Below are positions 1-19,627 of a DNA stretch of 19,627 nt, piece by piece; the stretch's first letter is position 1; each line of letters opens with the position of its first letter. The translations under genes and the position numbers were made by a program. The notes below the pieces were generated by a model. It did not search any database and was not told the origin of the DNA. It was given only the letters and a program-made list of their open reading frames with translations. Source of the stretch: a virus. The stretch lies in the IMG/VR virus record IMGVR_UViG_3300045988_014604, positions 1-19,627 of that record; one strand, written 5' to 3'.

Positions 1-109
1 GGGAGGGGTGTGGACTTGTGTGAAGATTTTCCCTTGTGGTTTTTTTTATTTGTGTATTATTTTTTTTTGTTCTGTGACCTCGTTGTTACTTTGTTTTGTT
101 TAAGCCTCT

Positions 110-138
110 ATTATATTTTTTTTGCGCTTGCCTGTCAA
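110..138 (-). promoter_or_regulatory. Consensus sigma70/sigmaA-type promoter facing the left genome terminus
   Basis: On the minus strand: TTGACA (138..133), a 17-nt spacer, then TATAAT (115..110). This matches the -35/-10 consensus and optimal spacing exactly. The predicted start is near 103 and transcription runs toward position 1. A mirror copy lies at 19490..19518 (+). Confidence 0.5.
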
Positions 139-152
139 GTTTTTTTTATTTA

Positions 153-164
153 GGGCGTGTCGTT
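153..164 (+). promoter_or_regulatory. 12-nt motif GGGCGTGTCGTT, copy 1 (candidate operator)
   Basis: An exact 12-mer also occurs at 292..303, with mirror copies at 19464..19475 and 19325..19336. This copy sits between the -35 boxes of the divergent ITR promoters and is flanked by T-tracts. Confidence 0.35.
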
Positions 165-171
165 TTTTTTA

Positions 172-198
172 TTGACACTGTGTCAATGGTTGTATATA
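172..198 (+). promoter_or_regulatory. Inward-facing ITR promoter
   Basis: TTGACA at 172..177, a 15-nt spacer, then TATATA at 193..198 (or a 17-nt spacer to TATACA). A T8 tract lies upstream. The -35 box is one arm of the inverted repeat TTGACA-ctg-TGTCAA, and the -10 box lies in the palindrome TTGTATATACAA. Confidence 0.35.
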
Positions 199-239
199 CA
201 ACAATCTGTGTTTGACTAAGTTACGGTAACGTAACCGTA

Positions 240-275
240 GCTATCGGCCGGTCGGTAGCTGTCTTTTATTTTTTT
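240..275 (+). terminator. Hairpin plus T-run inside the ITR (intrinsic terminator-like)
   Basis: GCTATCGG-ccgg-TCGGTAGC forms an 8-bp stem with two G-U pairs at 240..259. It is followed by tgtcTTTTaTTTTTTT. An 18-bp near-palindrome TACGGTAACGTAACCGTA lies just upstream at 222..239. Confidence 0.4.
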
Positions 276-291
276 GCTTTGTTTTGTTTTC

Positions 292-303
292 GGGCGTGTC
301 GTT
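292..303 (+). promoter_or_regulatory. 12-nt motif GGGCGTGTCGTT, copy 2
   Basis: Exact repeat of 153..164. It occupies the -35 region of the extended -10 promoter at 314..322. Confidence 0.35.
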
Positions 304-313
304 GTTTTGTTTG

Positions 314-322
314 TGTTATGAT
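314..322 (+). promoter_or_regulatory. Extended -10 promoter (TGtTATGAT) for the left terminal gene
   Basis: TGTTATGAT lies about 34 nt upstream of the ATG at 356. The RBS GGAAAGGAAA (341..350) follows. All of this is inside the ITR. Confidence 0.45.
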
Positions 323-355
323 GTAGTTATCAAGTTCAAGGGAAAGGAAAATAAA

Positions 356-616
356 ATGATTAATTTTACTGCATATGTTACCGAGTTCGAGAAGGATAAT
401 CGATACGAGGTGACTATTGAGGGAGTTTGGAGTGGTTTTACTTCCATCGATGGGCTGGAAGATAATTCTACTCTTTCGTTCCAGCGGGCGCTTGCGGGTA
501 TCGTAGAGGTTTTCTTAAGCAACGACTACGATATTAACATGGTCTCTGCTAAAAGCCGTTCTAGGGAAGGGCGCCCGTGCCGTAAGTACGTTATCTCGAT
601 TAATGACGGAGACTGA
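356..616 (+). CDS. Small hypothetical protein, 86 aa; possible HicB/UPF0150-like alpha/beta fold
   Basis: ATG at 356 is preceded by GGAAAGGAAA. The longer track ORF from 284 starts at a TTG and is ITR read-through. The beta-beta-alpha pattern FTAYVTEFE..RYEVTIEGV..STLSFQRALAGIVEVFL resembles HicB-like antitoxin N-domains, but the match is weak. This is the only plus-strand gene. Confidence 0.6.
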   Translation: MINFTAYVTEFEKDNRYEVTIEGVWSGFTSIDGLEDNSTLSFQRALAGIVEVFLSNDYDINMVSAKSRSREGRPCRKYVISINDGD

Positions 617-16869: not shown

Positions 16870-17181
16870 CACGCCCTCGTTATTTTCAACTTCGGCGTGT
16901 CGTTTTGTATGTTCTTCCGGCTTCCATTCTTGAGGTTCCTCAAAAGTGGCATACTTGTAAAAAGTTTCTTCATTCATTGAGACTTTTTGCGAAAAAATGT
17001 TGATGGAACGCGGGATGAAGTTCGGAAACAGTCTCTTCGCACGAATCGAATACGCGCGTGCATCCTTCAAGCGTCCATCGATAACGTGTTCGGCTTCCAT
17101 GAAATCGCCATCCACCAATTCCATGCCCTTGAGCACGGCATAAACGCGCGTGCGGAAAATATCGGTTTTAGTTCTAGCCAT
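16867..17181 (-). CDS. dsDNA-binding protein candidate (phi29 p6-like), 104 aa with an acidic C-terminus
   Basis: It has the same length as phi29 p6 (104 aa) and the same position upstream of the SSB. The loose match is MARTKTDIFRTRVYAVLKGMELVDGDF / MAKMMQREITKTTVNVAKMVMVDGEV, with acidic tails in both. The start is set to the ATG at 17181, preceded by AAGGAG. Confidence 0.4.
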   Translation of the reverse strand: MARTKTDIFRTRVYAVLKGMELVDGDFMEAEHVIDGRLKDARAYSIRAKRLFPNFIPRSINIFSQKVSMNEETFYKYATFEEPQEWKPEEHTKRHAEVENNEGV

Positions 17182-17185
17182 ATGT

Positions 17186-17701
17186 TCACTCTCCTTGTAA
17201 GATTTTTTGCAACTCACTGTCATTATATCGTTTTGTGTCCAGTCTGTCAAAATTTTTAAATACGGCGATAATCAGGTTTTGCGCTTGTGGAGTATCGAAA
17301 ATCGTACAGCAATCGTACGACGTGCCGCCCTTGACGGCGCAGACGGCGCACCATGCAATCAGGTTAGGCGGATTGACGGAGCCGTCCAAATATTCCACGT
17401 CGAACGTGCGGGATAGGGCGGCGGCGAGTCCGTCCCACATGGTCAGACTGCCGCATATATAAGATACGGCAATCACCGCTTGCGTAAACCACTCACTAGG
17501 CGCTTCACGCCACAGCTCGCACAGCATATTGACGGCACGACAGCACGTCTCATAGTCGCCATATCCAACGTCATACCGTTTTAGATTGAGTTCGCGAGTA
17601 TGTCCACGCGTGGCTTTGATAATGCGAGGTGACTCCATAATAGCATCATCAAACTGGCGCATGCGATAGACAGGCGTTCTATCATTGCCACGGTTAAACA
17701 T
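17186..17701 (-). CDS. Early protein of unknown function, 171 aa (Cys/Trp-rich)
   Basis: The ORF is long and in operon context. The start is set to the ATG at 17701 (GAGGAA 7 nt upstream), which overlaps the end of the upstream 58-aa ORF. The track start at 17743 has no RBS. Confidence 0.6.
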   Translation of the reverse strand: MFNRGNDRTPVYRMRQFDDAIMESPRIIKATRGHTRELNLKRYDVGYGDYETCCRAVNMLCELWREAPSEWFTQAVIAVSYICGSLTMWDGLAAALSRTFDVEYLDGSVNPPNLIAWCAVCAVKGGTSYDCCTIFDTPQAQNLIIAVFKNFDRLDTKRYNDSELQKILQGE

Positions 17702-17870
17702 AACACCGTTCCTCAACCTTAAAATAGCTGATATTTTCCACATGAGAGCGGATAGCCGCCCAGCGTTTAATTAAGTCTGCCGCATCCTTATATGAGGGCG
17801 CGTAACCGACTTCGATAGGAGGTTTGTGCGCATCCCTCAAGTATGCGAGAGCGACAAAAGTGCTATACAT
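17694..17870 (-). CDS. Early small protein, 58 aa; absent from the ORF track
   Basis: Hand translation gives MYSTFVALAYLRDAHKPPIEVGYAPSYKDAADLIKRWAAIRSHVENISYFKVEERCYV. The ATG lies 3 nt after the upstream stop, with TTGGAG 9 nt upstream. The 3' end overlaps the next start by 8 nt. Confidence 0.5.
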   Translation of the reverse strand: MYSTFVALAYLRDAHKPPIEVGYAPSYKDAADLIKRWAAIRSHVENISYFKVEERCYV

Positions 17871-19045: not shown

Positions 19046-19272
19046 TCTCCCCTCCTGTTGGCCTGATAGTAGTCAACGGAACCGTCCGTCCGCCAATACT
19101 TCAGGTTGGACAATTCCACGCCCGTCTCCCTACGCAATTCACGGCGCATGCGCTCCTTTGCGCCCTTGACGGTAACGACGTTACCCAACGAGAAATAGTG
19201 CGCGGTATTGTAGTCAATGAATGCCACTGTGATGGACTTGTTCCACCAATCAAACGAAACAACGGTGTTCAT
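19042..19272 (-). CDS. First early gene, 76 aa; promoter, RBS and ATG lie inside the right ITR
   Basis: The ATG at 19272..19270 is the mirror of the left-end ATG at 356..358 and has the same RBS. The 24-aa N-terminal extension in the track ORF is ITR read-through from a TTG. Confidence 0.6.
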   Translation of the reverse strand: MNTVVSFDWWNKSITVAFIDYNTAHYFSLGNVVTVKGAKERMRRELRRETGVELSNLKYWRTDGSVDYYQANRRGE

Positions 19273-19305
19273 TTTATTTTCCTTTCCCTTGAACTTGATA
19301 ACTAC

Positions 19306-19314
19306 ATCATAACA
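19306..19314 (-). promoter_or_regulatory. Early-operon promoter, extended -10 TGtTATGAT (mirror of 314..322)
   Basis: This is the ITR mirror copy. It lies about 34 nt upstream of the ATG at 19272. Confidence 0.45.
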
Positions 19315-19489
19315 CAAACAAAACAACGACACGCCCGAAAACAAAACAAAGCAAAAAAATAAAAGACAGCTACCGACCGGCCGATAGCTACGGTTACGTT
19401 ACCGTAACTTAGTCAAACACAGATTGTTGTATATACAACCATTGACACAGTGTCAATAAAAAAAACGACACGCCCTAAATAAAAAAAAC

Positions 19490-19518
19490 TTGACAGGCAA
19501 GCGCAAAAAAAATATAAT
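19490..19518 (+). promoter_or_regulatory. Consensus promoter facing the right genome terminus (mirror of 110..138)
   Basis: The plus strand reads TTGACAggcaagcgcaaaaaaaaTATAAT. About 100 nt remain before the genome end. Confidence 0.5.
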
Positions 19519-19627
19519 AGAGGCTTAAACAAAACAAAGTAACAACGAGGTCACAGAACAAAAAAAAATAATACACAAATAAAAAAAACCACAAGGGAAA
19601 ATCTTCACACAAGTCCACACCCCTCCC

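Follow-up and report, generated by a model that had tools for sequence, protein, structure and literature searches.

Each terminal repeat of a phi29-like Bifidobacterium phage carries a full-consensus promoter that points out of the genome towards the nearest DNA end. On the evidence of sequence comparison we conclude that this promoter is under purifying selection, that it is present in two copies and that these face true DNA ends. By all sequence criteria available it is a strong promoter of the housekeeping sigma-A type, and the site is very likely to function as such.

The outward promoter and the ends of the genome

The analysed stretch of DNA (the window, 19,627 bp) is the complete linear genome of a phi29-like Bifidobacterium podophage, whose closest isolate is Bifidobacterium phage BP1 with ~79% identity across the core, followed by the BD811P phages. 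Its gene order is that of BP1, and it encodes a phi29-type protein-primed family B DNA polymerase (phrog_1907, 2.6e-42) as well as a packaging ATPase of the phi29 gp16 type (phrog_2150, 1.2e-61). The minus strand carries nearly all genes, which extend from an ATG at 19272 in the right ITR to position 666, and one small plus-strand ORF (356-616) begins inside the left ITR. The left ITR (1..359) is 359 nt long and 100% complementary to the right ITR (19269..19627), its perfect mirror, and each ITR stops just past the start codon of the first gene at its end. Pfam and PHROGs searches of ten small early ORFs returned nothing significant and no regulator.

On the minus strand at 138..110, TTGACA, the spacer GGCAAGCGCAAAAAAAA and TATAAT (6, 17 and 6 bases) match the consensus in 12 of 12 positions. 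Because the site lies inside the 359-bp ITR, an outward promoter is found at both genome ends, the mirror copy being located on the plus strand at 19490..19518, and in both ITRs it faces the nearest DNA end; sequence, position and orientation are thus as given in a preliminary description of this DNA. The exact arrangement TTGACA-N17-TATAAT occurs three times in the window compared to 0 times in 200 dinucleotide-preserving shuffles. Mapped starts of Bifidobacterium breve have yielded TATAAT/TTGACA as the vegetative consensus, with 17 bp as the optimum spacer length (PMC5746004), and both the boxes and the spacing of the outward promoter of the window are identical to this consensus and optimum. 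Within the left copy (all coordinates on the minus strand), the -10 box TATAAT (110..115, column conservation 0.97) is followed by an A8 tract, which makes up the -10-proximal half of the spacer (116..123, 0.98), by the variable half of the 17-bp spacer (124..132) and by the -35 box TTGACA (133..138, 0.98). Directly upstream of the -35 box lies an A/T-rich tract, which reads AAATAAAAAAAAC on the promoter strand (139..151, 0.95) and resembles a proximal UP element.

The site had also been called the best promoter of the whole window. Its match is indeed perfect, but it is tied for best rather than unique, since a third 12/12 copy of TTGACA-17-TATAAT is located internally on the minus strand at 17250..17222. 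This internal promoter sits in the last codons of the preceding ORF (17186-17743); an RBS (AAGGAG) and the ATG at 17181 follow ~40 nt downstream. About 70 distinct relatives retain it, with the synonymous positions of the overlapping ORF invariant within the boxes, and it probably drives the replication module, i.e. SSB, a 320-aa candidate terminal protein and the polymerase. Its location upstream of a gene shows that the phage uses exactly this promoter type for genes.

The termini of the window are true physical ends. In the GenBank record of BP1, Illumina adapter (…GCTCTTCCGATCT) directly abuts GTGGGAGG…, which corresponds to base 1 of the window to within 2 nt, and more than 20 independent IMG/VR contigs end at most a few bases from the window terminus. 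The first eight bases of the window (1-8) read GGGAGGGG. In several related contigs and in BP1, 2-5 extra bases (GT or GAGGT) precede GGGAGGGG, so that the true physical end may lie a few bases past base 1 and the window may be short of 2-5 terminal bases. The reiterated terminal G runs would be compatible with protein-primed replication that starts by sliding back or jumping back, and the terminal block (1..79), which is G/T-rich on its 5'-ended strand, is the presumed origin; its mean column conservation is 0.94-0.96 (n=27 distinct ITRs). A similar G/T-rich terminus is also found in relatives without the outward promoter. Five T8-T9 tracts are present on the plus strand of the ITR (40-47, 60-68, 116-123, 140-147 and 163-170), of which the last three are 23-24 bp apart, and these tracts could represent phased bending sites for an origin DNA-binding protein.

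The comparison of termini also flags end errors in two GenBank phage records. In the BP1 record (PQ571273.1), the first 293 bases are foreign and end in the Illumina adapter, so that the true left end is at 294, and about 87 terminal ITR bases are missing from the right end. At 4-226, the record of Klebsiella phage KA1-2 (PQ571295.1) carries, in reverse orientation, a Bifidobacterium phage ITR of the BP1 type with 86.7% identity to the window ITR; the start of this record has almost certainly arisen by chimeric assembly within the same study.

Conservation of the outward promoter among relatives

About 90 related contigs were retrieved from IMG/VR by searching with the polymerase and the terminal 19-mer, and conservation was assessed over the 27 distinct ITR sequences that reach the promoter (IMG/VR relatives and BP1). 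The records of BD811P1 and BD811P2 are trimmed and lack ITRs, which makes them uninformative for this comparison. Conservation of the box positions in relatives, which had been named as a check on the promoter, was confirmed: all 27 ITRs carry it at the same offset from the end and with a 17-bp spacer. The match is 12/12 in 20 of the 27 and 10-11/12 in the remaining seven, whose deviating boxes read TACAAT, TATAAC, TTAACA or, in one lineage (contig 076702), TCTAAC, a degraded -10 box.

The boxes stand out against their immediate surroundings. The majority base falls below 90% in only 1 of the 12 hexamer columns, compared to all nine columns of the adjacent spacer half and 15 of the 30 columns at positions 80-109, and mean column conservation is 0.67 at the nine variable spacer positions and 0.75 at the six bases past the -10 box (27 ITRs). 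Between the window and BP1, each hexamer is identical in six of six positions, whereas the variable spacer half agrees in four of nine. However, the whole ITR is strongly conserved: among 146 placements of a promoter-shaped pair of column blocks along the ITR, the actual site comes only 25th, and it is 9th among the 71 placements that avoid the terminal block. Since most of the ITR is conserved, hexamer conservation alone is therefore unexceptional, and a promoter is argued for by the combination of a fixed spacing, boxes identical to the host consensus and the sharp local difference between the boxes and the spacer.

As judged from these comparisons, the outward promoter is restricted to one clade of Bifidobacterium phages. 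Two relatives with polymerases 79% and 76% identical to that of the window (L075 and L076, respectively) have similar G/T-rich ends and no outward promoter, and none is present in BadAztec1 (ITR about 303 bp), although its end is similar, or in Curtobacterium phage Fairywren. The outward promoter is thus dispensable for origin function, because L075, L076 and BadAztec1 do without it. Positions 1-300 of L076 consist of approximately three tandem copies of a 110-nt unit, which is nearly all G+T on the 5' strand.

Within the terminal 100 nt, variability peaks at 76-92. Here, a plus-strand hairpin of 5-6 bp with G.T pairs, followed by TTTGTTTTGTTT, is possible in about half of the relatives and absent in the others. 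Its mean stability is -3.0 kcal/mol on the plus strand compared to -1.6 kcal/mol on the minus strand, the gain on the plus strand being due to the G.T pairs. As a conserved feature of the outward RNA this hairpin was ruled out, given its absence from about half of the relatives and its greater strength on the plus strand.

The predicted run-off RNA and its counterparts in other phages

Transcription from the outward promoter is predicted to start at ~100-105, i.e. 5-10 nt past the -10 box, and to give run-off transcripts of identical sequence at both ends by virtue of the ITR symmetry (1..103 on the minus strand and 19525..19627 on the plus strand), with no terminator predicted on the outward strand before the end. 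The preliminary description had anticipated an A/C-rich, unstructured RNA of about 100 nt without an ORF, and the predicted RNA has these properties. It is C-rich and G-poor, and its minimum free energy of -3.7 kcal/mol (z = +0.69 for the ~103-nt RNA) means that it folds no better than shuffled sequences. A small ORF was rejected, because the RNA (103->1) contains no AUG and no other plausible start. The A/C-rich composition is a property of the DNA end and not of the RNA, since relatives without the promoter share it. An Rfam scan of the whole window (E<=10) returned five weak and irrelevant matches, none of them in the outward RNA and none to pRNA; with no Rfam match and no structure in folding, the identity of the outward RNA as a pRNA was rejected. 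At its 3' end (CACACCCCUCCC), the predicted RNA looks like an anti-Shine-Dalgarno sequence, probably by coincidence.

As a precedent for outward transcription, promoter A1 of phi29 had been put forward. A1 is indeed a 12/12 early consensus promoter, annotated on the minus strand at 356..328 (NC_011048), which fires toward the left end and thus in the same direction as in the window, and phi29 likewise has a protein-primed polymerase and a gp16-type packaging ATPase. In contrast to the window promoter, which lies inside the ITR at both ends, A1 is single-copy and located outside the 6-bp ITR. The phi29 pRNA at 147-320 is 174 nt long, highly structured and needed for packaging (PMC11476376). The A1-pRNA unit yields a structured RNA of the pRNA family (120-174 nt), whereas the RNA of the window is ~103 nt long and unstructured. 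Closer precedents, which had been missed, are provided by the ITRs of Cp-1/Cp-7 and asccphi28.

Like the phage studied here, Cp-1 is a phi29-like protein-primed podophage with a long ITR (236 bp), and its record annotates outward-strand -35 and -10 boxes inside both ITR copies. According to our promoter scan, its outward promoter at 177..150 reads TTGACA-16-TATAAT with an extended -10 TG, compared to the 17-bp spacer of the window, and it lies back-to-back with an inward 12/12 promoter at 222..250, a layout similar to that of the window. There is no terminator before the end, so that the run-off product would be ~143 nt long (~100 nt in the window). Among Cp-1, Cp-5 and Cp-7 the hexamers are invariant, whereas the spacer and the downstream bases change, the ITR of Cp-7 being only 83% identical. 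The Cp-1 record annotates mapped starts only for the inward promoters and not for the outward one. Further differences concern the 5' terminal strand, which is C/A-rich in Cp-1 and G/T-rich in the window, and the host, which is a Firmicute for Cp-1 and Bifidobacterium for the window phage. A pRNA has been reported for Cp-1, as cited in PMC6266182.

An outward promoter inside the ITR is also found in the phi29-like Lactococcus phage asccphi28, whose record lists a 'putative promoter P1' (12/12) directed outward at 401..373 within a 577-bp ITR. The outward unit of asccphi28 (20-401, minus strand) is ~340 nt long, compared to ~100 nt in the window, and it ends at a strong 17-bp hairpin annotated as 'terminator T1' ~25 nt before the DNA end, whereas no terminator is predicted for the outward unit of the window. 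It also folds better than shuffled sequences (z = -2.7), unlike the window RNA, and it contains a 54-codon ORF with an ATG ~3 nt past the predicted start, which would be leaderless. For asccphi28, published work reports no evidence for a pRNA (PMC7823558).

Near the ends of Av-1, Mycoplasma P1, P68, C1 and PRD1, no outward site matching at least 10 of 12 positions was found. A blastn search with the window ITR returned ITRs of Bifidobacterium phages only, and the ITRs of Cp-1 and asccphi28 match only those of their own groups. Given these unrelated ITR sequences, the likeness between the window, Cp-1 and asccphi28 is one of layout and not of common descent. Based on the sequences compared, the recurring element is a host promoter of full strength facing the terminus, which is present in at least three unrelated ITR sequences, and the outward RNAs of the four phage groups share no length, sequence or fold. 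As a kind, outward ITR promoters are not new, since they were already annotated in Cp-1, Cp-7 and asccphi28. Our literature search found no paper that treats them as a class and no discussion of the ITR promoters of Cp-1 and Cp-7.

One explanation for the outward promoter would be that its product matters, i.e. that an abundant, short, unstructured and A/C-rich terminal RNA acts in trans. Such an RNA might serve as a sponge or decoy for an RNA-binding factor, as an antisense RNA to G/U-rich leaders or to displaced ITR single strands, or as a packaging cofactor that replaces pRNA. With two perfect promoters per genome, a high output is implied, and block 1-79, which would be transcribed, shows high conservation. 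The phage encodes the phi29-type packaging ATPase (phrog_2150), and the outward promoter A1 of phi29 does give a functional RNA; the outward unit of asccphi28, being structured and terminator-ended, is gene-like as well. In addition, the 13-mer CTTTGTTTTGTTT at 90-102 recurs at 277-289, which means that the outward RNA has a perfect 13-nt antisense complement in any inward read-through transcript. However, we consider a role in trans rather unlikely. Besides the lack of structure, of an Rfam match and of a pRNA-like fold, the conservation and composition of 1-79 are equally explained by origin function, as both are also found in promoter-less relatives. Moreover, the first 25 transcribed nucleotides vary freely among relatives, no inverted repeat pairs 1-103 with any internal mRNA region, and nothing in length, sequence or fold unites the outward RNAs across the four phage groups.

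Neighbouring signals and possible roles of end-directed transcription

The preliminary description had paired the outward promoter with an inward promoter at 172..198 as a divergent unit, a pairing that is less secure than stated there. The putative inward site reads TTGACA-15-TATATA or TTGACA-17-TATACA, fails the rules of our promoter scan and has a -10 box that varies among relatives. Between the outward promoter and the inward signals lies the motif GGGCGTGTCGTT (153..164, plus strand), of which a second copy at 292-303 precedes an extended -10. In the form GGCGTGTCG(TT), the motif (153-164, 292-303 and their mirrors) is located at each end upstream of an inward, often extended, -10 box before the first gene. 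It is kept upstream of inward -10 boxes in L076 (371-400), in L082 (120-170), in BP1 and in BadAztec1 (L128, about 175-230), the last of which retains it although its polymerase is only 30% identical, and the distance between motif and -10 box differs between phages. The motif could be bound by a conserved regulator, or it could serve as an unusual -35 region.

The putative inward site belongs to an optional ITR insert (172..290 on the plus strand, mirror 19338-19456), which is found in most relatives and is missing from BP1-type ITRs. The insert contains a perfect palindrome, TTGACActgTGTCAA, as well as TTGTATATACAA and a near-perfect 22-bp palindrome, GTTACGGT(A/T)ACGTAACCGTA(A/G)C. At 237-262 it contains a hairpin followed by a T-run, the arms of which covary among relatives through compensatory changes. 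The insert could represent an operator-controlled small inward transcription unit or leader.

This arrangement bears on a further explanation, according to which occupancy rather than elongation is what counts. RNA polymerase parked ~100 bp from each end could act as a barrier that delays or times replication from that end, or the outward promoter could be a divergent partner that supports or limits the inward early promoters, coupled to them via the A/T tract and the GGGCGTGTCG site or via local negative supercoiling on a linear end that is otherwise unconstrained. The outward promoter and the inward signals are arranged back-to-back: 15-24 bp separate the -35 box of the former from the conserved GGGCGTGTCG motif, and an inward TTGACA is 33 bp away. 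Cp-1 shows the same back-to-back layout (outward 177..150, inward 222..250), and in the lineage whose -10 box is degraded the neighbouring copy of the motif is missing as well. Promoters that combine a full consensus with an upstream A-tract hold polymerase very tightly, and its escape from them tends to be slow, which would also fit a parked enzyme. However, the inward partner at 172-198 is weak, BP1-type ITRs keep the outward promoter without it, and a short untranslated transcript hinders rotation of the polymerase little, so that coupling by supercoiling would be weak. We therefore give occupancy about the same low weight as an RNA acting in trans.

It is improbable that the site is not a working promoter at all and that its hexamers are kept as binding sites for an origin protein or as TTGACA/TGTCAA operator half-sites, with a coincidental likeness to the consensus. 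The high conservation of the whole ITR would allow for this, and TGTCAA also forms one half of the nearby TTGACActgTGTCAA palindrome, but 12/12 matches are expected about 0 times by chance, and the variable spacer sequence stands against the retention of the two boxes, their exact 17-bp distance and the A/T-rich sequence around them. BP1-type ITRs, moreover, retain the site without the palindrome, and the same arrangement is found in the unrelated ITRs of Cp-1 and asccphi28. Reading into neighbouring DNA of a circular, concatemeric or integrated form of the genome, a role that had been suggested initially, is merely allowed by the orientation, with nothing else found in its favour, and it is hardly credible in view of the adapter joined directly to the BP1 terminus, the more than 20 contig ends at the same place, the seven loci with an internal terminal 19-mer, all of them chance matches in unrelated phages, the failure to find a junction contig, and the phi29-type protein-primed polymerase, which is typical of strictly linear replication.

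The likeliest role of the outward promoter, which we favour only tentatively, would be to direct RNA polymerase traffic that opens the protein-primed origin. Host RNA polymerase with sigma-A would initiate at a distance of ~100-105 bp from the terminus and transcribe to the very end, and because only this host enzyme is needed, the promoter would be expected to fire early. The run-off would yield the A/C-rich, unstructured and non-coding RNA of ~100 nt as a product. What selection retains comprises both boxes, their 17-bp distance, the A-tract and the A/T tract further upstream but no RNA fold, which suggests that the useful act is most likely the loading and passage of polymerase. At the left end, the RNA corresponds in sequence to the minus strand; it would be copied from the plus strand, which has its 5' end at the terminus, and the minus strand, whose 3' end lies there, would be displaced. 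The template of transcription would accordingly be the strand with the 5'-linked terminal protein, and the displaced 3'-ended strand would be the one that is copied first by the complex of terminal protein and DNA polymerase. Given this geometry, outward transcription would transiently open the end and expose the replication template, so that strand displacement at the origin would follow from geometry alone, and the outcome would be transcriptional activation or timing of the protein-primed origin.

Several points speak against a role at the origin. A polymerase moving outward would meet the fork coming from that end head-on and could inhibit replication instead of helping it, and a C-rich, G-poor RNA disfavours stable R-loops. 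Since L075, L076 and BadAztec1 manage without an outward promoter, such transcription could not be essential. In asccphi28, moreover, the outward unit is terminated ~25 nt short of the end, which speaks against a general mechanism of simple opening by run-off. We know of no protein-primed phage origin that depends on transcription, and the end of phi29 is opened by the phage protein p6. Elsewhere, transcriptional activation of a replication origin is found at ori of phage lambda, and end-directed transcription of linear replicons is represented by the bidirectional transcription of the adenovirus ITR and by the eukaryotic telomeric TERRA. In these systems, too, a promoter lets RNA polymerase cross or open an origin or an end, whereas their replication chemistries and hosts differ from those of the window phage.

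To our knowledge, the opening and timing of protein-primed genome ends are known in detail only for phi29, with its protein p6 and 6-bp ITRs. It is conceivable, although we would not regard it as likely, that end-directed transcription is a recurrent module of protein-primed phages with long ITRs, comprising the Bifidobacterium clade, the Cp-1 group and asccphi28, of which phi29 A1 and its pRNA might be a specialised derivative. Such a module would correspond, in phages, to the transcription of telomeres, with host RNA polymerase instead of a p6-like phage protein opening or timing the terminal origins. For practical use, the element offers a ready-made Bifidobacterium promoter that is predicted to be very strong. 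For the biology of these phages, the outward promoter represents an easily mutated handle on the question of whether host transcription takes part in the replication of the ends or whether a terminal small RNA is made.
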